A stretch of 20,000 nt of DNA. It comes from Lentisphaeria bacterium (GTDB taxonomy: Bacteria > Verrucomicrobiota > Lentisphaeria > JABSQK01 > JAWLHB01). Location: positions 292,534 through 312,533 of the forward strand of contig JAWLHB010000002.1 in the NCBI GenBank assembly GCA_041690595.1, in the 5' to 3' direction. The notes beneath the pieces are model-generated. The model saw only the letters and a program-made list of their open reading frames with translations, did not search any database and was not told the DNA's origin. The position numbers were made by a program, and so were the translations under genes. Shown here one piece after another: positions 1 to 19,056 of this stretch (its first letter is position 1; each line of letters begins with the position of its first letter).

Positions 1-1264
1 TGGACTTGTCGCTGACATTGGCCTGCCCGTATCGCTCCCTGCTCCCTTTGCCTTTCTCCATTGCCTCGATGCTGCCCATGCCCCGATACACCACGTAAGT
101 GCGACCATGATGCAGGATCTTCTGACCAGGGCTCTCCTGCGTTCCCGCAAGCGCCGAACCCATCATCACGCAATCACCGCCCACGCACAACGCCTTTACC
201 ACATCTCCAGAATACTTGATACCCCCGTCCGCAATGATCGGCACCTCGCCGCCGACGCCGCGATACGTCTCATAGACGGCGGTAAGCTGCGGTATACCCA
301 CCCCGCAGACGACCCGCGTCGTGCAGATCGAACCGGGACCCACACCCACCTTGATCGCATCCGCACCCGCTCTCACAAGGGCGATCCCTGCCTCGGCCGA
401 AGCCACGTTGCCGGCCACCACGTCGATGCTGGTATAGGCCTTCTTCAGCTCCTTGACACTCTCGATGACTCCCTTCGTGAAACCATGCGCCGTATCGATG
501 ACCACCGCGTCGACGCCTGCCTCCACCAACCTCGCCACCCGGGAAAAGTCATACGGACTGACCGCCGCCGCAACCCGCAATTTGAACTGCGCATCGCGAT
601 TGATCGTCGGATCGATGTTGTCGCTGAGGCTCTTCACATCGTGAAAGGAGTACAGCCCCGCCAGACGCCCTTCGCCGTCCACGATCGGCAACTTCCCGAC
701 ACGGTGCTCCCGCATGATCGAGAATGCCTGGTCAAGAGTCGTTCCCACTGGCGCGGTGATCAACTCCTTCGTCATCACGTCACTCACCGATACATCCGTG
801 TTGCTGACGAACTTGATGTCGCGCGCTGTCAGAATGCCAACCAGCTTGCTGTCCGCATCCAGAATCGGAAACCCGGTGAACGTGTAGCTCTTGCGATGCT
901 TGATGTCGAGCAGCTCGCTGAGGAGCATGTCGTGGCGGAAGCAAACCGGATTCTCGATGAGACCATTCAGGTAGCTCTTGACGCGCCGCACCTCTTCTGC
1001 CTGGCGATCTTCATCGAGGTTCTTGTGGATGACGCCGATGCCACCGGCAAGCGCCATCGCAATGGCCATCTCGCTCTCGGTCACCGTATCCATTGCCGCG
1101 CTGGCAAAGGGGATGAAGGTCTTGATGTTACGGCTGAATCTGGATTCGATCACAGCTTCGTCTGGAGCGAAATCCGCATATTGGGTGACCAGCGAGACAT
1201 CGTCAAAAGTCAGTCCCTCCCCGGGGAACTGTGCCATCAATGCCTCGATATGGGGGCTAAGCAC
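1..1264 (-). CDS. guaB: IMP dehydrogenase with CBS subdomain (3' end runs off the window)
   Basis: Manual minus-strand translation from GTG at 1264 (AAGGA SD upstream): [26 protein letters not shown]...[28 protein letters not shown], catalytic loop [20 protein letters not shown], and YRGMGS. Absent from the ORF track; the + ORF 107..1348 is its antisense shadow. Confidence 0.97.
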
Positions 1265-1341
1265 GGTCGGTATCCTTGCTCTTTTGGTGGTCGTTACGGA
1301 AGACGTGTCAGCGAGGCTGACCTGCTTCCCCTGACCAAGAT

Positions 1342-1369
1342 AAGGTAGAAGGCACGGCGGCTATGTCAA
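1342..1369 (-). promoter_or_regulatory. Putative sigma70 promoter for guaB
   Basis: Minus strand TTGACA (1369-1364), 16-nt spacer, TACCTT (1347-1342), ~80 bp upstream of the guaB start. Confidence 0.55.
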
Positions 1370-2337: not shown

Positions 2338-4475
2338 CCGCGCGACTGAGCCACTTCCCGCATCGAAAGCGATATCCGCCGTCGCTCTCGATCGATCCCG
2401 ATGACACGCACCAGAACCGTCTGCATGGCAGCAATCACGCCCTGCCCCTGATTCACCAGCTCACTGACGTGAACCATGCCGTCGCGGTGCACCCCGATGT
2501 CGACAAAGGCACCGAAGTTGGTGACATTGGTGATGCGGCCCGGCAGCACCATGCCCATCTTCACATCATCGAACGTGCGCACGTCGTCGGCAAATGCGAA
2601 GGGGACGAAGACGGGCCGCGGATCACGCCCCGGCCGCTTCAGTTCCTCACGGATGTCGAGCAACGTTGGCATGCCGACCTCTCCCGCCACGAACTGGCCG
2701 AGATCCAGTGCCTCCAGCAACGCTTCATCCTCCATGAGCTGCTTGATCGAGGCCCCAAGCTCCGCCGCCATGCGCTCCACCAGCCCGTAGCTCTCCGGAT
2801 GAACCGCACTCGCATCGAGCGGATTCCTTCCGCTTCGCACCCGAAGGAAGCCCACCCCCTGCTCGAATGCTGTTTTGCCGAAGCGCGGCACCCGAAGCAA
2901 CTGCTGCCGGTCGACAAAGCGGCCGTGCGTCTCCCGGTAAGCGACGATGTTGGCGGCAAGAGCAGGTCCCACCCCCGAGATCAACCGCAGAAGCTGAACG
3001 CTCGCCGAATTCACCTCCACACCAACGGCATGCACACAGCTCACCACCTCTTCCTCAAGCTTCTTGCGCAGCTTCTTCTGATCCACATCATGTTGATACT
3101 GCCCGACCCCGATGGTCTTCGGATCGAGCTTGACCAACTCCGCCAGAGGATCGATCAACCGCCGGCCGATCGAGACCGCGCCACGGACGGTGATATCCTC
3201 GTTCGGGAACTCCTCCCGCGCCAGATCCGAGGCGGAATAGATCGAAGCCCCACTCTCGTCCACCATGATGACCTGCACTCCCGCCAGGTGCCAGCCACGA
3301 ATGCATGCCTCGGCTTCGCGTCCCCCGGTGCCGTTGCCGATGGCGATAGCCCGGATGCCATGCTTCGCGCACACCCCCTCCAGAGCCTTCCTGGCTTCCA
3401 TCTCCGCTTTCACGCCTTGGCTCAGGAAGAGAACCATGCTGGCAACGAGACAACCGGTGGCATCGAGCACCACGGTCTTGCAGCCGGTTCGCAGCCCCGG
3501 ATCGATGGCCACGATCGGCTGTGGCCCAAGCGGCGCCGCCATCAGCAGATTGCGCAGATTGCGGGCAAAGACCGCGATAGCCTTATCGTCCGCGCTCTCC
3601 TTGAGCTGGTTTCGCAGCTCCGTCTCCAGAGATGGGGCCAGAAGGCGCCGGTAGCTCTCCTCCACGGCGAGAAGAAGCTGCTCCCCCATGGCGTTGCGGC
3701 GACGCACCAGCCGGTCCGCCATCATCGCAATCGCTTCCGCCGCCGGGGGGCGAATCGAAACCCGCAAAAAGCCCTCACGCGCCCCCCGCAGAATGGCGAG
3801 CAGACGATGACTTGGAACGCGCTTGGCCAGCTCGCTCCACTCAAAGTAATCCCGATACGTCTCCCCTTCCTTTGCTTTCCCCTTGACTACGCTGGCTGTG
3901 AGAATGGCCTTCTCGGCAAAGAAGTGGCGCAAGGCCTGGCGAATGCTGGCGTTCTCGCTGATCCATTCCGCCTGAATGTCGCGCGCCCCCTGAAGCGCCG
4001 CCTCCACGTCAGTCACATGCTCCGTCACATACGAGCGCGCAACCGTGTATGGATCCAAATTCTGGCGACCTTCATTCAGCAGCTTCGCCAAAGGCTCCAA
4101 CCCCAACTCGATGGCCACCTGAGCACGCGTACGCCGCTTTTCCCGATACGGCATGAAAAGATCCTCGAGCTCCGTCAGGTTCCGCGCCCGATAGAGCTCC
4201 GTACGTAACTGCTTCGACAGCAGCCCTCGACGCTCCAGCTGCGACAGGATCACCCTCCGCCGCGTGTCCCTCTCCTCTATCCGCGCAGCCCCGTCGCGTA
4301 TGGCCCGAATGCCCACTTCATCCAGACCGTCAAGGTGCTCCTTGCGATATCGGGCGATGAAAGGCACCGTCGCCCCACCCTGCAGCAGAACAAGTGTACG
4401 ACATACCTGTCCCAGCTCCAGATCCAGAGACGTGGCAAGCTCCAGAAGAGCCCCCTGCGTATAGTCGGTCGCCAT
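2325..4475 (-). CDS. tex: Tex/YhgF-family RNA-binding transcriptional accessory protein
   Basis: GATVPFIARYRKE, AIDPGLRTGCK (YqgF-like), AIGNGTGGRE, VDESGASIYSAS, RGAVSIGRRLIDPLAELVKLDPKTIGVGQYQHDV, HhH region, C-terminal S1 domain GRITNVTNFGAFVDIGVHRDGMVHVSE. Confidence 0.96.
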   Translation of the reverse strand: MATDYTQGALLELATSLDLELGQVCRTLVLLQGGATVPFIARYRKEHLDGLDEVGIRAIRDGAARIEERDTRRRVILSQLERRGLLSKQLRTELYRARNLTELEDLFMPYREKRRTRAQVAIELGLEPLAKLLNEGRQNLDPYTVARSYVTEHVTDVEAALQGARDIQAEWISENASIRQALRHFFAEKAILTASVVKGKAKEGETYRDYFEWSELAKRVPSHRLLAILRGAREGFLRVSIRPPAAEAIAMMADRLVRRRNAMGEQLLLAVEESYRRLLAPSLETELRNQLKESADDKAIAVFARNLRNLLMAAPLGPQPIVAIDPGLRTGCKTVVLDATGCLVASMVLFLSQGVKAEMEARKALEGVCAKHGIRAIAIGNGTGGREAEACIRGWHLAGVQVIMVDESGASIYSASDLAREEFPNEDITVRGAVSIGRRLIDPLAELVKLDPKTIGVGQYQHDVDQKKLRKKLEEEVVSCVHAVGVEVNSASVQLLRLISGVGPALAANIVAYRETHGRFVDRQQLLRVPRFGKTAFEQGVGFLRVRSGRNPLDASAVHPESYGLVERMAAELGASIKQLMEDEALLEALDLGQFVAGEVGMPTLLDIREELKRPGRDPRPVFVPFAFADDVRTFDDVKMGMVLPGRITNVTNFGAFVDIGVHRDGMVHVSELVNQGQGVIAAMQTVLVRVIGIDRERRRISLSMREVAQSRGQER

Positions 4476-4478
4476 CGT

Positions 4479-5195
4479 CTAGTCCTGATCGTCGTCGTCA
4501 AAAAGATCGTGACAGGGACCATACCGCTCATTCTCCCGAAGGATCTCCAGCGACACGTTGCTGGCCGACACATAAGGTGCAAGGCACGTGGGCAACGCCA
4601 TTTTGCCACAATCTTCGTCTTCGACATAGACCAGCTCGGCACCCTGTTCGCACCATGGCCGCTGGAAACAATCCGGGCAGAAGCCGTTGCAGCCGTCCAG
4701 CATGACCATGCCGCCCGGCGCCATGATATCGAACTCTTTGCCCTCGACTTCCTCCCGCAGGTACGCGTAGACCAGCCGGTCGGGCACCCCGATGTGCAGA
4801 TCGGCAATGTAGCCATGCATGTGTAGACGCTCCACAACCTCCTCCAGCTCCGCCGCCACATCCGTGTCACTCATGGCATCCAAGTCCTTGAAGACGACAT
4901 TGAGCGAGTGCTTCACCGGCTTGCCCTCCATCCAGCGCTCGAAGCGCAGCCAGTCCGTATCCGGATCGTAATCTGGCTCCACTGGCGGAAACAACATCCC
5001 CTTTGCCTCCAGCGCCTCGCGGTTAGGGCACGCACGATAGGTGCGCGCCCAGTGCAACAGGACGCGCAGGCGGCTATTCTCCATCTTCAGCTCCTCGGGC
5101 GTCTCCTGGAAAACGTCACCAATATCCAGCCCAAGCGCCGCGAACTCCCGCTTCAGCCCCTTGTTCTCAAGAATATGATCTAGTTTGGCGCCCAT
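4479..5195 (-). CDS. Hypothetical acidic protein with a C-terminal Cys cluster (possible metal or Fe-S binding)
   Basis: ORF 4479..5234. Strong SD AAGGAGG 5 nt before ATG 5195. Ends 3 nt before the tex start. Motif GCNGFCPDCFQRPWCE, further Cys residues, acidic tail. Confidence 0.75.
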   Translation of the reverse strand: MGAKLDHILENKGLKREFAALGLDIGDVFQETPEELKMENSRLRVLLHWARTYRACPNREALEAKGMLFPPVEPDYDPDTDWLRFERWMEGKPVKHSLNVVFKDLDAMSDTDVAAELEEVVERLHMHGYIADLHIGVPDRLVYAYLREEVEGKEFDIMAPGGMVMLDGCNGFCPDCFQRPWCEQGAELVYVEDEDCGKMALPTCLAPYVSASNVSLEILRENERYGPCHDLFDDDDQD

Positions 5196-5375
5196 CATAA
5201 CCTCCTTCAGCATGTTACTGCCATACCTTGTCACTCACATGGACATCTGTCCACCCAAATCGTCGGCGGATTTGCAATGCATCGGGGACAGCATAAGCTT
5301 ATGGGTTGCCACGTTGCCTTCCGGGGAGGGAGGCAGCTTTCATCGAACCACGTCTTGCGAACTTGATCAGTCTTC

Positions 5376-5987: not shown

Positions 5988-6056
5988 CGTCCCGCCTCCC
6001 TCTTTTTTTATCCTGTTGACGCATCATTTCCCGAGGCGTGGAGTCCAAAAGCACAA

Positions 6057-8558
6057 ATGTCGAGTGATACAGATGCCGCGGTCATGACGAGGTCTATCTT
6101 GCAACGTTATCTTCTGGTTCTTCTGCTGCTGATTGGGCTGACTGGCTTGCGCCTCCATGGCGCGCCGGCGGATGACATCGCAAAACTGGAACAAGCGATC
6201 CAGGCGGATCCCCCGCCCCCGGTCTCCCCGACCTCGCGGGCACTGGAAAATCTGCCGGAGAACACCGCGCTCTCCTGCGGCCCCTGGCAGTTGCGCCGCT
6301 ACCTGCTCAAGGAAGTGACCACACCACTGCAGAAGCGCCTCGCCCCCAAACAGGAAAAAGCGGTGCAGCCTGTCCATCTGCTCCCTGTCGATTTCAGTGA
6401 CAATCGCGACTTCTTCGCGCGTCCCCAAGGCTCCCTCTGGGGTTGGAATACCCTGCACGTCGAGCTGGAGTTCCCCGAAGGTTTCCCGGATGAAGCGGAT
6501 CTCTACTTCTTCGTCAAGGACTGGGATGATCTGTGGCTGCATATCCGCAAACCCGTGACCAGCTCCGCCGGACAACGGCTGGTCTTTGCCTTGCCGATCT
6601 CCGGGAAGGCTGCCACCCAGGCCTGGACCCCGCGCGGCCATCAGCGCCCCTGGCATCAGTTGACACCGGATCAGCTATCCGAAGTCGGTATCAAGATCGC
6701 CGCTCCCGCCGGCATCGCGTCCACCTGGAAAGGAGACGTGAAGCTCCACGGTCTCACCTTGAGCCGATCGCTGGAGAGCACCCAAAAGCCGCGCATCCAT
6801 GACCTGCAGCGTCTGCCGGAAGTCCCACAGGTAGGGCGCATGGTCGAAATCTCCTTCCGCGTCAATCATCTCTACAAAGACCCCTTCAATCCCGCGGATG
6901 TCGATCTGGCCGCCACCATCACCACCCCCAATGGCGACACCTATCGAACCAGAGCCTTCTACATGGAAGATTTCCTTTACGACGACAAGCCCCGGGGTTC
7001 GCGCCTGTTGACGCCACATGGCATGCCCCGCTTCGCGGTGCGCTTCACCCCCCGGCACCAGGGCTTCCACAAGGTGGCGATCGCCGGTCACCTTGGTAGC
7101 GTGGCGCTCGCCCTTCCTGAACTGGAAGTCGAAATTCTGCCCGAGACACAACCATGGAAGGGCTTTGTCAGGGTCTCCCCCCATGATGACCGGCTGCTGG
7201 TGAATTCCCGGGACAACTCGGAATATTGGGGCCTCGGCATGAACATGCGCTCCCCCAACGATACCCGCTATCATGAATCGTTCCCCTTCACCGAATGGGA
7301 TGGACGCGATTTCGAAGTCTACGAGAAACTCCTGCCAAAATATGCGGCCGCCGGTATCAAGGTGATCGAGGTATGGATGTCTCCATGGTGGCTGGCTCTG
7401 GAGTGGATTCCGGATGCACCCGGCAACCATGGGCTCGGCTACATGAACCCATGGCGCGCCTGGAAAATCGACCGCCTCATGATGCTCGCCGAGAAATACG
7501 ACCTCCAGGTCATCCTCGTGATCAACAACCATGGGAAGTTCAGTGCATGGATCGACTCCGACTGGGCGCGCAACCCCTTCAACAAGGAGAATGGCGGGCC
7601 GCTTGTCACCCCCATGGAATACTTCAGCAAGCCCGTCGCCCGGGAAGCCTTCAAACGACTCGCCGATTATATGGTGGCAAGATGGGGCTACTCATCCAAT
7701 CTCCTCGCATGGAAGCTCTTCACCGAGATTGACCTCACTGGCGACAATCGACAATGGTACAAGGACCAGTCGGTGACGGACTGGCATCGCTTCGCTGCCC
7801 GCTACCTGAAGTCCATCGACCCCAACCAGCACCTGGTCACCACCCACTGGGCAACCTCCTATGAACTGGTCAACGAAGAGCTGGCCAAACTTCCGGAACT
7901 CGACATCCTCACTCTGGACATCTACTACGGTGGAAGCGGCGCCCGGCACCTCTTCAACTTCATGTTCTCCACTGCCAGTTTTGTCGACAGCATGAAGAAG
8001 CCGGCAATCATCACGGAATTCGGCGGCAGTCCGCACGGCGATACGCTGCCGCATATCCTCCACCAGCTCCACATGGGCTTGTGGGCGGGATACTTCACGA
8101 AGTTCCCCGTCAGTCCGTGCTTCTGGTGGTATCCCCTCGTGGAGGAGAAGAACCTCTACAGCTACTACGAAAGCCTCGCCCACTTCGCGGCAGGAGAGAA
8201 TCGCACCGGCGCCAAACGCGTCAATCGTACCCTGCGCGACGACCTCTACCTCTGCGAACTGCGCCAGGAAAATTCGCGCCTCTTCTGGCTCCTCGACACC
8301 AAGCACTACTTCGGCGGCAGCCTCACCATCCCCCCAACCGTGCACCGCACGGTCGATCTGGAGATGCCCGGATTGCCGGCCGGCACCTACGAGGTCGAAT
8401 TCTGGGACTGCCGATCGGGCATCCGAATGCAGCAGGAACGTTGGCAGATTCAACCCGGCGACAGCTCCCCCAAGCTCAAGCTGCCCGTCTTCCAGTGCGA
8501 TATCGCCGGCAAGATTCGGCGAGTTCAAGACGCGGCCAAGGAAACCGCCGCCGACTGA
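6057..8558 (+). CDS. Secreted DUF5060-domain protein with a clan GH-A (GH5-like) TIM barrel, putative glycoside hydrolase
   Basis: Hydrophobic signal (YLLVLLLLIGLTGL; start could be ATG 6084). DUF5060-like VEISF...YKDPFNPADVDLAATITTPNG...AFYMEDF...FAVRFTP. Barrel motifs YMVARWGYSSNLLAWKLFTEID, DPNQHLVTT, KPAIITEFG. C-terminal beta domain GLPAGTYEVEFWD. Confidence 0.8.
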   Translation: MSSDTDAAVMTRSILQRYLLVLLLLIGLTGLRLHGAPADDIAKLEQAIQADPPPPVSPTSRALENLPENTALSCGPWQLRRYLLKEVTTPLQKRLAPKQEKAVQPVHLLPVDFSDNRDFFARPQGSLWGWNTLHVELEFPEGFPDEADLYFFVKDWDDLWLHIRKPVTSSAGQRLVFALPISGKAATQAWTPRGHQRPWHQLTPDQLSEVGIKIAAPAGIASTWKGDVKLHGLTLSRSLESTQKPRIHDLQRLPEVPQVGRMVEISFRVNHLYKDPFNPADVDLAATITTPNGDTYRTRAFYMEDFLYDDKPRGSRLLTPHGMPRFAVRFTPRHQGFHKVAIAGHLGSVALALPELEVEILPETQPWKGFVRVSPHDDRLLVNSRDNSEYWGLGMNMRSPNDTRYHESFPFTEWDGRDFEVYEKLLPKYAAAGIKVIEVWMSPWWLALEWIPDAPGNHGLGYMNPWRAWKIDRLMMLAEKYDLQVILVINNHGKFSAWIDSDWARNPFNKENGGPLVTPMEYFSKPVAREAFKRLADYMVARWGYSSNLLAWKLFTEIDLTGDNRQWYKDQSVTDWHRFAARYLKSIDPNQHLVTTHWATSYELVNEELAKLPELDILTLDIYYGGSGARHLFNFMFSTASFVDSMKKPAIITEFGGSPHGDTLPHILHQLHMGLWAGYFTKFPVSPCFWWYPLVEEKNLYSYYESLAHFAAGENRTGAKRVNRTLRDDLYLCELRQENSRLFWLLDTKHYFGGSLTIPPTVHRTVDLEMPGLPAGTYEVEFWDCRSGIRMQQERWQIQPGDSSPKLKLPVFQCDIAGKIRRVQDAAKETAAD

Positions 8559-8596: not shown

Positions 8597-9055
8597 ATGA
8601 GCGACAGCCTGGACCACGGCCTACTCCTGGAGACCGCGTTGGCGGAGGCGCGGGATGGCCTGCGCGAAGGTGGCATCCCCATCGGCGCAGCCATCTTCGA
8701 CCGGAGCGGAACCTTGCTTGGACGCGGCCGGAATCGCCGCGTACAGGAGGGTGATCCTTCGGCGCATGCCGAGGTGGACGCCTTCCGCAACGCCGGCCGC
8801 CAGCCCTCCTATGCGGGCACGATCATGGTCACCACCCTCGCGCCATGCTGGTACTGCAGCGGCCTGATCCGCCAGTTCAGAATCCCCCTGGTGCTGGTGG
8901 GTGAATCGAGAAATTTCCAAGGTGGCATGGCGTGGTTGCGCCAGTGTGGGATCGAGGTGATCGACCTTGACTCGGCGCCATGCTACGACATGCTCAGCCT
9001 CTATATCGCCGACCATCCGCGCGTCTGGAACGAAGACATCGGCGAGGCTACCTAA
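8597..9055 (+). CDS. Zn-dependent nucleoside/cytosine deaminase, yeast FCY1-like
   Basis: EGGIPIGAA, GRNRRVQEGDPSAHAEVDA (HxE), TTLAPCWYC (PCxxC), C-terminal WNEDIGE. GAGG SD 6 nt before ATG 8597. Confidence 0.9.
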   Translation: MSDSLDHGLLLETALAEARDGLREGGIPIGAAIFDRSGTLLGRGRNRRVQEGDPSAHAEVDAFRNAGRQPSYAGTIMVTTLAPCWYCSGLIRQFRIPLVLVGESRNFQGGMAWLRQCGIEVIDLDSAPCYDMLSLYIADHPRVWNEDIGEAT

Positions 9056-11169
9056 GCCGTATCGTCCTTGCCGGTTGGCGGCTCGATGTCGGTGTCCAGC
9101 CGCCTGGTCGGCTGGCGCTGCCACGGTTCGGTCCGCGGCTCCGGTGCCTGCAGAAGCTGGGTACGCTCCGGCATGGCATCATGAACCCGCGTGTGGAGAC
9201 CGGTGGCGGCCTGACGCGAAGCAATCGCGGAAGTCTGACAGGCAGCCAGGACAGTGGCGACCTCGGCCATGTCGCGGGGGCGGTCGCGAGGATCCTTCCG
9301 GAGGCAGCCCATCACAAGGTCCGCCAGTGCCGGGTCGAGATCGGGATGGCGGTCCGAAATGGGCGAGGCTTCTTCCTCCAGGTGACCATGCAGAATGCGC
9401 GGAACTTCCGGCCATGAAAAGGGGGGGCGCCCGGAAAGCAGATGGTAGAGGGTGGCTCCAAAACTGTAGATGTCGCTCTTGGGCGTGATTGCCTGGCACC
9501 GAATCTGTTCCGGGGACATGTACTGGGGTGTGCCGACAAGCATGCCGGCCTGTGTCAGATGCGGCGCGTCCGTCTTGCTGGCGATGCCGAAGTCCGTTAG
9601 CTTCGGGATTGCCGTGGCGGTGAGCATGATATTGCTCGGCTTGAGATCGCGATGAACAACCCCCAGCTGGTGCGCCTGATAGAGTGCCCAGGCGATCCCT
9701 TCACAGGTCCGCACCACCTCCTGCTGCGTCATCCTGTGCTGCTCCTCCAGGACCTCACCCAGACTCTTGCCCGAAATGTACTCCATCGCATAATAGGGCT
9801 GCCCCGATACCTCACCCGCGTCGATAATGCGCACGATGTTCGGGTGATTCAGCTCCCGCAGCAGATCCATTTCCCGCAGAAAACGCTGCACGGCCTGCTC
9901 GTCGGCGGCATAGTGCGGCAGCATCTGCTTGAGGGCGACCACTTCCTTGGTCCGTGGATGGCGAGCCAGGTAGACCACCGCCATCCCACCGTGGCCAAGC
10001 TCGCGGATGAGCTGATACGGCCCCACCTGCGTGTGCAGCACCATCGGCTGGCGGGCAGGAAGACCCGCCAGTATATACCCCAGCGGCATCGCCACCATGC
10101 CATACGACATGTCCACGCTGACCCCGTGGTAGACCATCAGCCAGATCGCCACCACCATGATGCCGACCGCCATGCAGCCGTACCCGATGACCACCGCCAG
10201 CCCCGATCGAAACATGGCAAGATAGGCAGCTATCGCGGCAATGACCATGGCCAGCAAGGCCTGCGCCTGCCGCGCCATATCGCGGCAATAACGACCGTTC
10301 AGCAGAGAGGCCAGGACATTGGCATGGATCTCGACCCCGGCACACAGTTCGTCACCCTTGGCCAGCGGGGTGGCGAAAAACTCCTTGGCTTCGGTCAACG
10401 TCACGCCGATCAGCACGATCTTCCCCTCGAAAAGCCCAGGTTCGCTGAGCAGGGCATTCCCCGAAAGCACATCGGTGGCGGAGACCGAGGCAAAACTCCC
10501 GCCACCACCCACATAGTCGATCCCATGCTCCGCATCGAGTCGCAGCAGCGGATAGCTGCCGGTATGCATGCGGTGCAGCTCCATCGCCAGCGCGTAATGG
10601 TCGTCGCCGAAGATCTCCAGGCGTGGCTTGAAGCGACGCACGACATGGTCCCGGTCGAAGGGCAGGTTCACCAGAGCGACCCGCGCCCGATCGCGGAAGA
10701 GCGGCAAGAGCAGGCGCATCTGCTGAAGCTCGGCCGCCCCGCCAGCCACCCGCCGATCCGTCGCGTCCAGCTTGGCCCCAAGCACAACATTCGGGTACTC
10801 CTGAAGCGCGCTGGCAAAGCGTTCGTCCTCGCCGGGGTCGGTGCGGTCGAGGAAGAGCATGTCGAAGCCGATTGCCGTGGCGCCGCCGCCGTCCACCGCG
10901 GCGAGGAGGTCGGCGTAGAGCGACCGCGGCCATGGCCAGGCGATGCCCAGCTCACTCTGGGTCTCCTCGTCGATCAGCACCAGCACGATGCGACTGCGCA
11001 CGCTGCTGGTGTCACGAAGCTCGGAACGCACGTCGAGCAGAAAGTCGTAGACCTGGTGATCGATCGGCTCGAAGAGGCGTATCCAGGCAAGGCCACCGAT
11101 CAGGAGGATGGCGATGATGCCGCCGGCGACGCCATGGTAGAGCGGTCGCCTGGAGCCTGGCTCGTTCAT
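9052..11169 (-). CDS. CHASE2-domain membrane sensor Ser/Thr protein kinase (Hanks type)
   Basis: N-terminal TM, CHASE2 motifs (IVLVLIDEET, WPWPRSLYA, IGFDMLF, DRDHVVRR, GKIVLIG, GVEIHANVLASLL), three TM helices, then kinase motifs GHGGMAVVY, VALK, HRDLKPSN, DFG, GTPQYMSPEQ. ATG 11169 lies 4 nt after the upstream stop. Confidence 0.95.
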   Translation of the reverse strand: MNEPGSRRPLYHGVAGGIIAILLIGGLAWIRLFEPIDHQVYDFLLDVRSELRDTSSVRSRIVLVLIDEETQSELGIAWPWPRSLYADLLAAVDGGGATAIGFDMLFLDRTDPGEDERFASALQEYPNVVLGAKLDATDRRVAGGAAELQQMRLLLPLFRDRARVALVNLPFDRDHVVRRFKPRLEIFGDDHYALAMELHRMHTGSYPLLRLDAEHGIDYVGGGGSFASVSATDVLSGNALLSEPGLFEGKIVLIGVTLTEAKEFFATPLAKGDELCAGVEIHANVLASLLNGRYCRDMARQAQALLAMVIAAIAAYLAMFRSGLAVVIGYGCMAVGIMVVAIWLMVYHGVSVDMSYGMVAMPLGYILAGLPARQPMVLHTQVGPYQLIRELGHGGMAVVYLARHPRTKEVVALKQMLPHYAADEQAVQRFLREMDLLRELNHPNIVRIIDAGEVSGQPYYAMEYISGKSLGEVLEEQHRMTQQEVVRTCEGIAWALYQAHQLGVVHRDLKPSNIMLTATAIPKLTDFGIASKTDAPHLTQAGMLVGTPQYMSPEQIRCQAITPKSDIYSFGATLYHLLSGRPPFSWPEVPRILHGHLEEEASPISDRHPDLDPALADLVMGCLRKDPRDRPRDMAEVATVLAACQTSAIASRQAATGLHTRVHDAMPERTQLLQAPEPRTEPWQRQPTRRLDTDIEPPTGKDDTA

Positions 11170-11173
11170 GATC

Positions 11174-12316
11174 TCATTCCAGTTCTCGCTGGAGCGCCCG
11201 CAGACGCCCCATGGTGACCAGCCGTTCATTGTCATCGTGGCTGGAGGCGACCCCATCGCGTCCCCGGCTGTGCAGGTAGAAGCCCATGACCCGATCGCCC
11301 CGCTTCAGGTGATAGACGCAATATTCGTTGCCATACGGATCCTTGAAGTCGCTCTGGATGTACGGCCCCTTCCACTCCGCAAGCGGTTGCCCCGCATGGT
11401 CCACATTCTCGACGAGGCCGCGCAGCGTCACCGCACCGGATGACTTCCGCGCTCCCTCTCCGGGCAGGAACTGCGTATCGCGGTAAAGGCGAGCGATGGC
11501 CAGTTGCAGCTTGTCGAAGTCCTCGTCCATCTTCTTGCGTGCCCGATCCTCCGCAATGGCCCCGCGAAGCTCGTCCCGAACGTCCGAAACCCGCTGATCT
11601 TCGATTCTGGCCATCTCGACCGCGCCGCCGCCAAGAACACTGGCCAGCCCCAGTCCCTGCAACTGCTCGTTGAACTGCTGCTTCTCGCGCTCGCGGGCAG
11701 CTTCCATCTTCAGCATGGTCTGCTTGTCGGGCGGCTTGTTGAAAAGCACCTCGATCTGGAAGCCCGCGGGCACGTCCACCGTCTGCTCCCTCAACGGCTC
11801 CTGATACGCGGAGACGCGCACCTCCCCTTCCCAGACGCCGATGGTGCTGTTGCGGGTCTGGGGATCCGATTCGACAAAATACTCAGTCCCCCGCACTGCC
11901 GCGATGGCAGCCGGTGTATAGATCGAGAAGGAACTCGTGTCGTTCTTCTTGAACTTGGCCCACAGCTTGCCGACCAGGAGGCCGATCAAGCTCTTCCCCC
12001 CCTGCTCATCCTCATCACCGCCCTGCATGGTGTGCAGATAGACGAGACTGTATTCGTGCACCGTGACGACCGCCTCTCCCGGGAATCGCAGGACCACCTT
12101 GGCATCCGCACCCGTGCGCAGATAGCTGCGCAGGGGCAACTCCGCCGCCTTCTCCAGCTTCTTCCAGGGGCCCTTCTGGGTCGTTCCATAGCCGGCCTGA
12201 CCTTCAACCTGAACCGCCGTTGCGGTGATCTCCGCCCGCACCGACGAAAAAGCCACGAAGAGCGCGCAGCCCAGGAAGAGAAGAAGAGTGACATGCACCG
12301 GACAGTGAGTACGCAT
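11174..12316 (-). CDS. Exported FecR-domain protein fused to a C-terminal GspG/T2SSG-like pseudopilin globular domain
   Basis: GGAGG SD 6 nt before ATG 12316. Signal peptide ending VRA. FecR motifs LRTGADAKVVLRF, LLVGKLWAKF, IYTPAAIAAVRGTEYFVE, GVWEGEVRV. C-terminus LAIARLYRDTQFLP...LRGLVEN...WKGPYIQSDFKDPYGNEY...FYLHSRGRDG...DD. Confidence 0.85.
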   Translation of the reverse strand: MRTHCPVHVTLLLFLGCALFVAFSSVRAEITATAVQVEGQAGYGTTQKGPWKKLEKAAELPLRSYLRTGADAKVVLRFPGEAVVTVHEYSLVYLHTMQGGDEDEQGGKSLIGLLVGKLWAKFKKNDTSSFSIYTPAAIAAVRGTEYFVESDPQTRNSTIGVWEGEVRVSAYQEPLREQTVDVPAGFQIEVLFNKPPDKQTMLKMEAAREREKQQFNEQLQGLGLASVLGGGAVEMARIEDQRVSDVRDELRGAIAEDRARKKMDEDFDKLQLAIARLYRDTQFLPGEGARKSSGAVTLRGLVENVDHAGQPLAEWKGPYIQSDFKDPYGNEYCVYHLKRGDRVMGFYLHSRGRDGVASSHDDNERLVTMGRLRALQRELE

Positions 12317-12379
12317 CTTGATCCTCCGCTGGTAGATCAGGTTGTCGCATGCCGGTTGCGCTCGCAACCGCTACCCGTG

Positions 12380-13262: not shown

Positions 13263-14170
13263 TGCCCCAAAGCGACAAGGATATCTACTACTACGATCGG
13301 GCCAGCGGTCGGCTCGAACGGGAGACCGTCTACGGCGAGCGCTTCGTCAAATGGGCCTATCAGGAAGGTGGCAAACCGCTCCTGCACCGCCTCCTCTTCA
13401 CTTCCCCCCTCCCATCCCGCCTGCTCGGCCACTATTTCAACTCACGCTTCTCTCGCCATCGCATCCGCCCCGCCATCGATCTGCTCAAGATCGACACCAG
13501 CGAGTTCCGCGATCCCGTCGAAAGCTTCTCCTCCTTCAATCACTTCTTCACCCGCCACCTCAAACCCGAAGCAAGACCCTTTGACCACGCACCGGACGTG
13601 CTGGTTTCGCCCGCCGATGGGCGCACCCTCGTCTTTCCCTGTGTCGATGGCGATACCGCCGTCCCCGTGAAAGGCAAGAGCTTTTCCGTGCAGGAGCTTC
13701 TGCAGCGCGACGCGCCGGATTTCCGCGGCGGCGTCGTCATCGTCATCCGCCTCTGCCCCGCCGACTACCACCGCTATCATTTCCCCTGCGCCGGCACGGT
13801 GACCGACCAGTACGACATCCCCGGCGCCTATCATTCCGTCAATCCCGTCGCCCTCGCCGCCGGATTCGACGTCTTTACCGAGAATCGCCGCGCTTGTTGC
13901 CTGCTGGAAACTGCCCAGTTCGGCAGCATCGCTTTCATCGAAGTCGGCGCCTTCGGGGTTGCCGGCATTGTCCAGACCTATGCCGGCACCAAAGTCAGCA
14001 AGATGGACGAGAAGGGCTACTTCACCTTCGGCGGCTCGACCATCATCCTCGCTATTCAGGCAGGCAGGATCGTACCATCGGCCGATCTGCTCGCGCAGTC
14101 GGCCAATGGACGGGAGACTCTGGTCAAGGTCGGCGAGACGATCGGCCGCGCCGTCAATCCCCACGCGTAA
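13262..14170 (+). CDS. psd: Phosphatidylserine decarboxylase proenzyme
   Basis: [48 protein letters not shown], and the self-cleavage site [11 protein letters not shown]. Start overlaps the CPBP stop (TGATG). Confidence 0.95.
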
Positions 14171-15422
14171 AGAGGACGCTCTCCTCGTACTCGCGGATCC
14201 GCGTCAGCCAGTTGATGCCAACCGGCACATTCTCGCGCAGGCAGTAGTAGTCCCACACCGCCCCGAACGGCATCGTCTTCAGCTCCTCCAGAAGGGCCAG
14301 ACGCTTGGTGAAATCCCCCTCGACCTCGTACTCGCGCAGGATCTCGGTCGGCTCCAGCAACGCCATCATCAGCGCCTTCAGCATCGCCCGCGTGCCGATC
14401 GTCCAGGCCGCCACCCGATTGATGCTGGCGTCGAAAAAGTCGAGCCCGATGTGCACGCGGCCGAAGTAGTCGTTGCGCGCCACTTCCTGGGCCAGCGAAT
14501 GCAGATCGTCTGAGAGGATCACCACATGGTCGCTGTCCCAGCGCACCCCGCGACTCACATGCAGGATGACCTCATCCACGAAGAGCAGAACCGACGACAA
14601 TTTGTCGTAGATCACCTCGGTCGGATGAAAGTGACCCGCATCCAGGCAGAGCATGACCTCATTCTCTACCGCATAACCAAGATAGAACTCATGCGAGCCA
14701 ATGACGCAGCTCTCCGAGCCGATTCCGAAAAGCTTCGACTCCACCGCGTCCCGGTGGTGGCGGGGGTCCAGCTTCTCCGCGAACATCTCGTTCAGCGACT
14801 CCTTCAGCAGCGCGCGATGCCGCGCCCGATCGATCGGGATATCCTTGTAGCCATCGGGTATCCATACGTTGGTGATACAGGGGGTGCCCAGCTGACTCCC
14901 CATCGCGGCGCTGATCGTGCGGCAGCGTTTGCCATGCTCGATCCAGAAGCGGCGAATGTCCGCGTCCATGCTGGCAAGCGTGAAGCCGTCAGCCGCCTTT
15001 GGGTGCGAAAAGAAGGTCTGGTTGAAGTCCAGCCCGATTCCCTGCTCCTTCGCCCAGTCGATCCAGCCCTGAAAGTGCTCCACCCCGATCTCGTCGCGGT
15101 CCACGTGCTTGCCGCCGAACTCGCCGTAAATAGCATGCAGGTTGAGCCTGTGTTTGCCGGGAAGCAGGCTGTACGCCTCTTCCAGATCCTGCCGCAGCTC
15201 GTCGGGCGTGCGGGCCTTCCCCGGATAGTTGCCGGTCGCCATGATGCCGCCACCGGTCAGTCCGGCACTGCTTTCAAAACCACCGACGTCGTCCCCCTGC
15301 CAGCAGTGCAGCGAGATCGGCACCTCGGCAAGCGTATCCATCGCGGCCTCGGTATCGACGCCAAGCTCCTCGTATATCTCCTGCGCTTCGGCATAGCGAC
15401 GCTCGATTCTGCTCTCACTCAT
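14154..15422 (-). CDS. rhaA: L-rhamnose isomerase
   Basis: [101 protein letters not shown] before ATG 15422. Confidence 0.97.
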
Positions 15423-15471
15423 GATCAGCTTCCTTACTGGTGATAAAAGATGGCCATTCCCTACTTCTGCA

Positions 15472-15500
15472 AGAATAGTAGGCTGCCCCGAAAATGTCAA
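15472..15500 (-). promoter_or_regulatory. Near-consensus sigma70 promoter for rhaA
   Basis: Minus strand TTGACA (15500-15495), 17-nt spacer, TATTCT (15477-15472). Confidence 0.7.
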
Positions 15501-15513
15501 CCACGCTGCACAC

Positions 15514-18500
15514 CTACTCCACGATCAGGATGCGAAGATCGTGCGCGCCCAGCTCCAGGCGGCGGCCCGCGTACTCGCCCCATTCGCGCACCCGCTTCTC
15601 CGGATTCCAGAAGGTGCGGAACGCATAGCCGCTTTCGGCATCCCGTACACTCGCGGGCACCCTCCCAAGCAGCGCGGGAAGGAGTTCGAACTCCACATCC
15701 AACTCCCGGTTGTTTCCATTCAAAATAACCAGCGCCGCCTTCCCCTTGCCGTGATAGATCGAGCAATAGACCTCCGGAGTGTCGACCTTCACCATCTCGC
15801 CGCTCCGCCAATAACCCGTGAAGGGGCAGGCCGCATCTTCGCTAAAGAAGCCAACCGCCTCGTCCAGCAGCTCCGGCAGCTTCTGGTGCTCCCAGGCATA
15901 CTCCGTTCCCCAGCGGTAGGCGCCAATGTCGTGAAGCAGGCAAAGCCCGATGATGTTCCGCGAACGCCGCCGCGACTCCGCCTGCGTCGACGCTTCCCCC
16001 CCGCCATAGCGCGAGGCAAGCCGATGAATGATCCCCCGCTTCAGCCGCGCATACGACCGGAACTGATGCACCGACATCTGGTCGAGCAGCGTATTCGTCG
16101 GTCCATCCACATAGAAGTCGTTCTCGATATGCCACGCCACCTGGTTGAAGGACCAGTCCACGTGCATGTTGCCGATCCACCACGGACGCCGGTTCAACTG
16201 CCAGCCGATCGTGTTGAGCCGGCGCGTCAGCTCCCGCCGCATCCCCGTATTCCAGCGCCAATAGAACTCCTGACGCCGCGGATCGTAATCCTTGATCTGA
16301 AAGCTCGACCGATTGTCCCACCAGGTCCCGTTCACCGGGCAGTCGCGCAACAGCTGATAGTGGTACCAGACGAAGCAATCCACCTGGCTCTGCACCCAGT
16401 TCACCCCGATCTCGTGCTGATCCCGCTTCAGCGTCGACTCGTAGGAGCCCTGCATGTTGAAGCCATTCGACTTCGCCGCCAGCTCCTGCGACCGCAATTG
16501 CGTGTTGCCAAGCCACTCCCCCCCATAGGTGTCGAAGCTCGGCAGATCCATCATCATGTTCTTCGTCGAACCGTACAGGGTGATCGGCAACTGCCGTCGC
16601 GCCGCTATCTCGGCATCCTGGCGAAAACCACCCAGAGGTCGTCCCGGAGCCCGAAGCCCCTGCAGCATCTGCCGCAACGCCTCGCGGTCGTTCTGCTCCA
16701 TATAGTAGCCATCGCTCGAACGCCCCCACTGCCGCCAGCCAAAAGTGCTGTGCGCGTACCACCCCGGCCCGACCGGGCCCTGATGTCCCCAGCCAATCAC
16801 CCGCTCCGCCAGCATCTTCTTTACCGGATCGGCCAGCAAACCGAAATGGAAACGGCGTGTTTGCTTCACTTCCACCGGCTCGCCAATAAAGTGAATGTGC
16901 ACCTCGACTAGCCCGGCACCGTTGCGCACGACCTCCACCGCCGGCCGCTTCTCGCTCATCACCCAGTCGCGATTATCGTCCGCAAACCACCAGAGACCCT
17001 TGTCGCCGTTGCCTGCATGGACAATGGGCGCAAAGGTGCGCCAGACATCCCCATTCCGCGGCACCGGCTGAAGCATGCCGCTGTGCCAGACAACCCCCTG
17101 CCCGGCCGGAATCGCGTCCATCTTGTTGCCGCCGGCAAAGGTATCCGCCCCTCGCTGCACGTACATCGTATCCGCCCCTTTCCACAGCGGCAAGACCAGC
17201 GTCAGCGAGTCGATCGTGCCACCACCCGCCGGCGGCGTCACAAAAAGCTCCACGTCGTAGTAGCCGTCAAAGAGCATGCGCGTATCGGCAATCAGCGTGA
17301 AATCCCCCATCTGCCCCAGCGAGCGCAAGACCACCTGGCTCTCCGACTGCGAGATCAGGGCAGCATGTGGGTCACTCAGCGCCAGCTCCTGCCCACCATG
17401 CACCAGCGTCAGGTGTATCGGCCGTTCGAGCAGCCTCTCCCGACCAGCCCCACCCTCCGCTTCGATCGACATCGGCAGCCCCATATCGCCGATGGTATAG
17501 GACCGCAGAATCGGTGACAACACCTGGCGCCCTTCCCGCTCCTCCACCTTGATCGGCTTGAAGGGCGGAAAAACGACCTCCTCCTGGCCCAGCGCGTTGC
17601 CCTCCCACTCATAATGCCGGCGGACAAACGGCACCTCCCGCACCTCTCCAACCATCTCGCCACCATCGTTCAACAGCTTCATCTCCGCCACGTACTCGCC
17701 CTCCCCCAGACGTCCGCAGTTGACAAGCAACCGCCCCCGGCCACCCTCGATTCGACCGATCGCGCTCGCCACCGCTTCTCCCTCCCACGGCCGGATACTC
17801 ACGGCAAAGCTGCCCGCTCCCGCCACCGCCTCCGGCATACCAAAGAAGTCCAGATCCACGCTCGTCTCCGCGATCCCATGCGTCGGCCAATAAGCGAACC
17901 GCCACTCCGGCTCTCCTGACCGGGGCTTCTGTTGCAGCCACGGCTCCACCCGCGCCGCCCATTCAACCGGATCGACCAGCGACTTCACCGGCAATTCCAC
18001 CTCGTACAGCGTCACCAGCTCGCCCTCTGCCGCACCCTCCTCAGCCGGAAGGCGAGCCGTCGCCAGGATATGCAGCCGATTCCGGCCCGACGGCCAGTTG
18101 ACCTCGCGTTCCACGACCATCGAGGCAAGTCCCCCAGGCGCCACCACCGCCTGGCGATGCTCGCGAAAGAGTTCGCCCCCCTGTGGATCCCGCGCCGTCA
18201 CCGTTACCTCGATCTCCGCCTCCTCGCTCCCACCGAGAATCTCGAATCCCAGGCGCGGGCGCCCCTTGGCCAGCTCACCCGTCTCCAGAAAACGGAAGAC
18301 CGGCGCATCCGCATCGAAGACGATCTCCCCGAAATCGCCCCAGGCCATCCAGGCTTCACCTACCCAACCAGCAAAGTAGACCCCACCCGGAGCATCCGCC
18401 CGCAGCAGTTGCATCACCCACGACTCCCCCTCCAGATCCTTCGGCGCCTGCAGCGCCGCCAGGGAAATCTTCAACTCCATCTCCCACCGCGACTCCGTGA

Positions 18501-19056
18501 CCGACACCTTATGCTCGCCGATGATCGACCAGTCCTGCTCAGTCCCCGGCGTCCCATTGAAATACCACATGTCATGGAGCGTCCCCTTGGCATTGGTCAT
18601 GATTTTGTAGAAACCTTTGCCCGGCGCGGAGTAGTTCCGCCTCCCCTGCGTCGCAATCTGAATCTCCGTATGATCATCCCAGAGGATAGCCCCATCGTCA
18701 TCCTCCTTCACCCGTGCCGCCGGCCAGGTCCCCGGCGGATGCGGCGAGCGCATCGCCAGATAGAAGTACTCGGCGTCGTAGCTCACGAACCATGTCACCT
18801 GCTGTTCGTTGGCCACTACCGACTTCTCCGCGCCTCCCGGTCCGCCCCAGGTCACCATCCCCGTTATCGCCGGCACCGACGCATATTCCTCCTCACCAAT
18901 CACCCCGTCAATCACCGGGCTCATGCTCAACCGCGGAATCCGCCAGACCGGGTGATCGTACGCCGCGCCCACGGTGAACGCCACGCCTATCCCCAGGACC
19001 ACACCAAGGAAACTGAATCTCTTCATGCCTCTACGCCCCCATGCGCTCCGCTCCAT
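15514..19056 (-). CDS. Large secreted protein with an N-terminal CBM9-like domain and a DUF6067-like putative glycoside hydrolase region
   Basis: GGAGGT SD before ATG 19056 (alternative start 19026). Signal peptide. [12 protein letters not shown]...[11 protein letters not shown]...WDDHTEI...WEMELKISL resembles CBM9-type sugar-binding domains. Later [45 protein letters not shown] resemble the DUF6067-type proteins of PVC bacteria. The ORF is secure; the product is tentative. Confidence 0.7.

Follow-up and report, generated by a model that had tools for sequence, protein, structure and literature searches.

The stretch analysed here, 20,000 nucleotides of Lentisphaeria bacterium contig JAWLHB010000002.1 (positions 292,534 to 312,533; hereafter the window), contains on its minus strand a gene, FecR-T2SSG, whose product combines a FecR domain with the globular head of GspG, the major pseudopilin of type II secretion systems (T2SS), and lacks the hydrophobic alpha1N helix of pilins. 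A gene encoding a Ser/Thr kinase with a CHASE2 sensor domain, which was not mentioned in the initial annotation of the window, is located 4 nt downstream. Most likely, both genes belong to a single operon, and the FecR-T2SSG protein is probably, at moderate confidence, an exported, membrane-anchor-free accessory protein of this kinase. This reading starts from the identity of the domains, the fold of the head, the loss of the anchor, the tight linkage of the two genes, and a pairing that is kept across lineages and across types of receptor output.

Organization of the FecR-T2SSG gene and its product

The FecR-T2SSG gene and the regions of its product show the following distribution:

11174-12316, minus strand: FecR-T2SSG gene (P0001), a single open frame of 380 amino acids plus stop
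12322-12327, minus strand: Shine-Dalgarno-like GGAGGA, read from the sequence, 5 nt before the ATG
12233-12316, minus strand: N-terminal hydrophobic segment (residues 1-28, ending ...SVRA), putative Sec signal peptide by hydropathy
11816-12121, minus strand: FecR domain (residues 66-167), Pfam PF04773, 47.9 bits, E 2e-12, cut-off 24
11567-11725, minus strand: polar, predicted helical linker (residues ~198-250) without hydrophobic stretch, from a low-confidence full-length model
11177-11566, minus strand: GspG-type pseudopilin head without alpha1N (residues 251-380), by Pfam, PDB profile, AlphaFold and Foldseek
11231-11266, minus strand: putative calcium-binding loop (residues 351-362, with D354, S359, D361 and D362), by column match to PulG

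The gene starts with an ATG at 12316 and ends with a TGA at 11174-11176. An alternative TTG start extends the open reading frame (ORF) to 12367; the ATG is preferred because relatives of the protein align from it. The sole hydrophobic segment of the product comprises residues ~3-30 (Kyte-Doolittle), and a hydrophobic N-terminus is also present in the 14 members of the family alignment that are free of N-terminal tetratricopeptide repeats (TPR) or other extensions. Judged from hydropathy, this segment is a putative Sec signal peptide. Beyond residue 30 the maximal 19-residue Kyte-Doolittle mean is 0.94, so the protein shows no prepilin-type hydrophobic helix; together with the lack of any Pfam N_methyl match at E ≤ 1, this agrees with the absence of a prepilin N-terminus that had been noticed initially.

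The FecR domain lies in the N-terminal half, where the initial annotation had placed it. The best NCBIfam matches cover the FecR region only and belong to the leptospiral lipoproteins Lsa33 (49.3 bits) and LipL45 (41.8 bits), both under the cut-offs of their families (420 and 350, respectively). A leptospiral anti-sigma family gives a weak match (20.2 bits; cut-off 200). In the ESM Atlas the nearest cluster is FecR-only, with a score of 0.88, which is taken as a lead only. A FecR-type anti-sigma factor of cell-surface signalling would account for the FecR score and for the weak anti-sigma match, and the periplasmic FecR domain (PF04773) is common to the window protein and the FecR/PupR anti-sigma factors; in E. 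coli FecR, according to the accessible part of PMC5498481, this domain contacts the periplasmic N-terminal part of FecA. However, the FecR/PupR proteins have a cytoplasmic anti-sigma domain, a membrane span, and a neighbouring gene for an extracytoplasmic function (ECF) sigma factor or a TonB-dependent transducer, whereas the window protein contains neither a cytoplasmic anti-sigma domain nor an internal transmembrane segment, and the 18 window ORFs scanned with Pfam (16 of at least 150 amino acids and two more) show neither an ECF sigma factor nor a TonB-dependent transducer. This explanation was rejected as very unlikely.

The C-terminal region matches T2SSG (PF08334) between residues 297 and 366, at profile positions 41-105 of 108, with E 4e-6 and 27.2 bits against a cut-off of 21; the C-terminal 128 amino acids scored alone reach 30.3 bits. 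The single C-terminal sequence, searched by phmmer against the PDB sequences, gave only a chance match to an alpha-glucosidase (E 0.09). A profile of 18 family C-terminal domains (alignment A5) searched against the PDB shows eight distinct sequences at E ≤ 0.01, all eight of them GspG-type major pseudopilins (best E 2.3e-9): EpsG, XcpT, PulG, GspG of enterohaemorrhagic E. coli, and one more GspG entry are among them. Residues 251-380, modelled by AlphaFold from A5, reach a predicted local distance difference test score (pLDDT) of 90.8 and a predicted template modelling (TM) score of 0.86; the model contains a helix of 30 residues and a short one, three strands, and a further helix at the C-terminus. 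The first 14 matches listed by Foldseek against the PDB are all GspG, PulG, EpsG or XcpT chains, with target-normalised TM scores of 0.45-0.74, four of them at E ≤ 0.001; type IVb pilins come next, at E > 0.2. The GspG-like head proposed initially is thus found by three kinds of comparison.

The motif order of GspG that had been described is present in the translation and corresponds to conserved columns of the family. The head keeps an amphipathic helix (D-F-x-x-L-x-x-A-(I/L)-x-x-(L/Y)-Y-x-D-T), an L-x-x-L turn, W-x-G-P-Y, D-P-(Y/W/F)-G-x-x-Y and an S-x-G-x-D loop. With the GspG proteins PulG, EpsG, XcpT and OutG it has in common the alpha1C helix, the alpha-beta loop, the beta-sheet, the W-x-GPY and DP-x-G-x-x-Y motifs, and the calcium-ligand columns. 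The C-terminal domain derives from the major T2SS pseudopilin GspG. What is lost with respect to a pilin is the prepilin leader and the hydrophobic alpha1N helix: the head starts ~250 residues into the protein, and the polar linker, predicted as helical in a low-confidence model, occupies the place of alpha1N.

In the HMMER alignment to the family profile, L114-D125 of PulG (1t92) corresponds column by column to R351-D362 of the window protein. The accessible part of a 2026 preprint gives D117 and D125 as the chief calcium ligands of PulG and OutG, together with D124, S/T122 and the backbone carbonyls of 114 and 119 (PMC13081927); on that numbering, D354, S359, D361 and D362 correspond to PulG D117, S122, D124 and D125. 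All nine kinase-linked sequences in alignment A3 keep D354 and D362. As judged from these residues, the head of the window protein probably has a calcium site, which is not shared by the whole family.

The product might also be regarded as a real T2SS pseudopilin, since its T2SSG match exceeds the Pfam cut-off and the NCBI record of another FecR and T2SSG protein, P0016 (MCD6521198.1, Candidatus Calescamantes), is publicly named "type II secretion system protein GspG". GspG has a prepilin leader, an N-methylation motif and alpha1N, is located in a gsp operon and scores above the cut-off of the GspG equivalog TIGR01710. In contrast, the window protein shows a FecR domain and a polar linker in place of leader and helix, has no N_methyl match, matches TIGR01710 between residues 262 and 364 (profile positions 37-128 of 134) with 20.9 bits against a cut-off of 88.85, carries a FecR region of 250 residues before the head, and is not located in a gsp operon. 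Without leader and alpha1N it cannot polymerise like a pilin, and a true pseudopilin was rejected as extremely improbable. The "GspG" name of P0016 is likely a misannotation, because the tests that define a pseudopilin fail.

Distribution and annotation of the family

An exhaustive HMMER search with a three-sequence profile against 1.84 billion representatives gave 15,992 matches at E ≤ 0.001, the majority of which are FecR-only proteins. Among the best 150 of these 15,992 matches, both domains are aligned in 16 representatives of 50% identity clusters. T2SSG is above the Pfam cut-off in 14 of the 16 full-length representatives, reaching 67.8 bits; P0005 and P0006 show no Pfam T2SSG match at E ≤ 0.01. 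When the head profile was run against a word index, limited to longer proteins and to E ≤ 1e-5, it returned 47 proteins, 45 of which have precomputed FecR and T2SSG domains. The carriers include metagenome-assembled genomes (MAGs) of Victivallales, Omnitrophica and Calescamantes.

The family is sparse. No full-length match was found in the first 40 relatives searched, which show single-domain matches only, and 4 of 401 sampled genomes of the phylum carry the fusion, the genome of the window being one of the four. In species-representative genomes, a search with the nine-sequence alignment A3 found seven full-length loci, all in Victivallales/Victivallaceae MAGs. Another carrier has a protein 100% identical to the one in one of these MAGs, by which the genome of the window is placed in the same class as Victivallaceae. 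Three proteins, P0018, P0023 and L093 (337-1776), show N-terminal TPR repeats before the FecR-T2SSG part. A separate protein of 484 amino acids, P0185, contains five T2SSG-like stretches (Pfam, 137 bits) and no FecR domain, and may by its sequence be a tandem array of pilin heads.

An assembly artefact was one of the conditions named initially as capable of refuting the fusion; its recurrence across many independent assemblies shows that it is none. No point in support of an assembly or gene-calling error was found: the frame is continuous on a 312-kb contig, and the fusion occurs in 16 clusters, nine further genome loci and at least 45 database proteins, so that this possibility was rejected as negligible.

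The initial annotation had also known of no description of the architecture. In the literature, a full-text search, with most subscription journals outside its reach, found no paper on a fusion of FecR with a pseudopilin head or on CHASE2 with a pseudopilin, although a missing paper is for that reason not proof of absence. In the databases, the architecture is not unique and is already visible in public domain annotations, under automatic names: several Candidatus Omnitrophica MAG proteins are called "FecR domain-containing protein", JGI records "FecR-like protein/type II secretion system (T2SS) protein G", and P0023, also from JGI, "tetratricopeptide (TPR) repeat protein". The novelty lies in the interpretation and not in the sequences themselves: an anchor-less GspG head with pilin-type calcium ligands, fused to FecR and linked to CHASE2.

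Linkage to CHASE2 receptor genes

The gene downstream of FecR-T2SSG shows the following elements:

9052-11169, minus strand: CHASE2 Ser/Thr kinase gene, 705 amino acids, with its ATG at 11169 lying 4 nt past the FecR-T2SSG stop
10228-11112, minus strand: CHASE2 domain of the kinase, Pfam PF05226, 155.6 bits
9274-10017, minus strand: protein kinase domain, Pfam PF00069, 190.6 bits

The longest kinase ORF (9052-11256, minus strand) would start at 11256, with an 83-nt overlap with the FecR-T2SSG gene; a start at 11169 (ATG) is favoured because it better matches the N-termini of relatives. Hydrophobic segments at residues ~11-33 and ~302-353 bracket the CHASE2 domain (hydropathy), and the kinase motifs VALK, HRDLKPSN, DFG and SPE are visible in the alignment.

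CHASE2 genes were searched in all loci of the comparison with a hidden Markov model built from these receptors; the source receptors match it by construction and were confirmed independently by Pfam. The FecR-T2SSG loci comprise the class of the window and a second subfamily. The class of the window contains 10 loci: the window, L011-L017, L173 and L174, leaving out L171, which duplicates L013. In 10 of 10, a gene encoding CHASE2 and Pkinase is located directly downstream on the same strand. One of them, L017 (Victivallales), also shows a prepilin peptidase gene (Peptidase_A24, 4039-4902) directly upstream, though the fusion has no prepilin leader.

The second subfamily contains 24 metagenome loci, and a CHASE2 gene adjoins in 10 of them. 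In L091 and L092 the gene order is FecR-T2SSG, CHASE2 kinase and a histidine kinase with FHA and GAF domains. In L098, L099, L100, L102, L103, L104, L108 and L109, a gene encoding a CHASE2 adenylate/guanylate cyclase is located directly upstream, and in each of the seven of these loci scanned there with Pfam, all but L102, an ORF for a GAF/HATPase histidine kinase lies upstream of the cyclase. The third gene fits the output of the receptor: the FHA-GAF histidine kinase comes after the CHASE2 Ser/Thr kinase (L091, 4174-7599; L092, 6005-9648), and a GAF histidine kinase comes before the CHASE2 cyclase (L099, 1920-4977; L100, 1849-4882; L104, 1816-4819; L109, 1905-4929). FHA domains bind phosphothreonine, and GAF domains often bind cyclic nucleotides. 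This arrangement suggests, for the second subfamily, that the CHASE2 receptor relays to a histidine kinase in the cytoplasm. The operon of the window has no such third gene.

Among the FecR-only relatives (L018-L090), 42 of 73 show a CHASE2 ORF in the flank, mostly directly downstream. The plain pseudopilin-like loci (L115-L170) show none in 56.

Comparison with known FecR and CHASE2 gene pairs

Gene pairs of this kind are described in Burkholderiales, where proteins with LysM and FecR domains occur with CHASE2 histidine kinases, an observation on gene neighbourhoods in the accessible text of PMC5192318. The Burkholderia operon called "BiofilmReg" in that text contains a LysM-FecR protein (COG4254) beside a CHASE2 histidine kinase (PMC5192318). 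As far as this account goes, this operon and the window are alike in showing an exported FecR-domain protein immediately upstream of a CHASE2 transmembrane sensor, separated by a short gap. They differ in the extra domain, which is an N-terminal LysM in BiofilmReg and a C-terminal GspG head in the window, and in the receptor output, which is a PAS histidine kinase in the former and a Ser/Thr kinase in the latter; moreover, the BiofilmReg operon adds a response regulator and a DUF4136 gene, which the window operon does not.

In Campylobacterota, a CHASE2 adenylate cyclase clusters with a FecR-domain protein, a TPR protein and a phosphodiesterase, according to the accessible sections of PMC9239204. 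This cluster resembles the family in that a FecR-domain protein occurs with a CHASE2 receptor, and the second subfamily is likewise linked to a cyclase. The separate TPR protein of the cluster has a counterpart in the N-terminal TPR repeats of P0018, P0023 and L093. The same sections report no pilin-head domain for the cluster, and the window shows a kinase receptor with neither a phosphodiesterase nor a separate TPR gene.

CHASE2 cyclases are also present in Sinorhizobium, and Clr is a cyclic AMP regulator. In the accessible portion of PMC5498481, FecR-domain and TPR proteins are targets of Clr and are dispensable for the perception of plant signals. No mechanism for FecR-CHASE2 coupling is given in the portions available of the three papers (PMC5192318, PMC9239204 and PMC5498481).

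The window gene fits this FecR/CHASE2 neighbourhood class, as it encodes a FecR-domain protein with predicted export, co-directional with an adjoining CHASE2 gene. We regard it as a form of the FecR-CHASE2 gene pair already known, one whose accessory protein gained a pilin head.

Proposed function and alternatives

The loss of the prepilin leader and of alpha1N, which are needed for membrane insertion and polymerisation, implies that the protein is no filament subunit and that the head is a soluble globular module. The initial annotation suggested a soluble periplasmic sensing or docking module; such a role we also infer. In the accessory function proposed here, the FecR-T2SSG protein would be located in the periplasm, where its FecR domain would be the module common to the many FecR-domain proteins beside CHASE2 receptors. 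The protein would contact the periplasmic CHASE2 domain, or deliver a ligand or partner to it, and kinase activity would be set by that contact or delivery. The pilin head would provide a surface for docking or for a ligand, and Ca2+ might stabilise or gate it; both export and any dependence on calcium or another ligand are presumed. We know of no signal for the CHASE2 sensor domain. Receptor output switches between kinase and cyclase while CHASE2 is constant, which points to a periplasmic link, and the downstream reader varies with the output, the pattern expected if FecR-T2SSG works with CHASE2 outside the cytoplasm.

Several points weigh against this function. CHASE2 was not seen in 14 of the 24 loci of the second subfamily, 12 of these 14 being cut close to the gene on the receptor side. 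The other two are real exceptions: L094 shows no CHASE2, with the C-terminus of a histidine kinase upstream and LpxK downstream, and L106 shows none within the available ~3-5 kb. Likewise, 31 of the 73 FecR-only relatives have no CHASE2 in the flank. The calcium-ligand positions are replaced in cyclase-linked members, for example by G-L-V-G-A-A-G-E-T-x-G-E-E, so calcium binding is not the common function of the family. The full-length AlphaFold model, based on a three-sequence alignment, has a pLDDT of 48.4 and is not usable for the arrangement of FecR, linker and head. A cysteine at residue 17 (LFLGC) means that the window protein may undergo lipoprotein processing; the two closest relatives do not share this cysteine. 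Finally, physical contact between the FecR-T2SSG protein and the CHASE2 domain is itself something we infer. A complex prediction with kinase residues 34-300 and FecR-T2SSG residues 29-380 entered as alignments gave 0.00 twice, in runs without controls, and speaks neither for nor against binding.

Some of these points would be accounted for by a free-standing secreted or outer-membrane binding protein, whose head recognises a ligand outside the cell or in the envelope, and for which the kinase is a mere neighbour. The leptospiral FecR-domain proteins LipL45 and Lsa33 have been proposed to be adhesin-like, and they are the best NCBIfam matches over the FecR region, but with scores far under their cut-offs; to these are added the possible lipobox-like cysteine at residue 17 and the two loci, L094 and L106, without an adjacent CHASE2 gene. 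Nevertheless, the 4-nt spacing together with the pairing in 10 of 10 loci is hardly due to chance, and the same applies to the retention of CHASE2 when the output of the partner switches. We regard such a binder as a minor possibility.

The head could also dock on the T2SS of the cell itself (endopilus, platform or secretin) and report or modulate secretion status, with or without the kinase. It is truly homologous to GspG and its calcium loop is intact, the genome has two canonical GspG genes (contigs C53 and C28, the window being on C2), and a prepilin peptidase gene stands directly upstream in L017. Against this, L017 is the only one of the 10 class loci with a pilus-related neighbour, no T2SS family was found among the scanned window ORFs (0 of 18, in agreement with what the initial annotation stated of the window), and CHASE2 neighbours are present in none of the 56 plain pseudopilin loci. 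Moreover, pilin-pilin contacts depend heavily on the alpha1N helix, which is absent here. We consider docking of this kind unlikely.

Returning to the accessory role with the CHASE2 kinase, a more specific version of it is put forward speculatively and at low probability: the anchor-less head would let the kinase read the state of the envelope via a pilin-type interface, either by docking onto the T2SS endopilus or assembly platform, or by a calcium-gated switch in fold. The latter is suggested because PulG has been reported as disordered and degraded without Ca2+.

Other genes of the window

The remaining window contains genes of other types. An L-rhamnose isomerase gene (14154-15500, minus strand; 677.7 bits) adjoins a gene encoding a protein of 1180 amino acids with a GH123 N-terminal domain (15514-19056, minus strand); the pair seems consistent with a polysaccharide-degrading lifestyle and apparently unrelated to the FecR-T2SSG gene. 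An ORF of 833 amino acids (6057-8558, plus strand) gives a weak DUF5060 match (25.2 bits, below the cut-off of 27.2) and overlaps three minus-strand ORFs, 6024-6656, 6675-7532 and 7692-8528, none with a Pfam family. Two more ORFs, 107-1348 (plus strand, 413 amino acids) and 4479-5234 (minus strand, 251 amino acids), show no Pfam family at E ≤ 0.001.

Significance

The family ties a structurally well-understood module to CHASE2 receptors, through a change of output domain, and the GspG head, whose calcium loop is apparently intact, offers a concrete experimental handle on these receptors. It is also a natural case of a type IV-pilin-class head outside a filament and without the helix that defines pilins, which is relevant to pilin evolution. 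For annotation, the name "GspG" on a member of the family would wrongly imply a secretion-system gene. If the head works through a pilin-type interface, CHASE2 would gain a defined protein co-sensor, and if it docks onto the T2SS, secretion activity would feed phospho-signalling.

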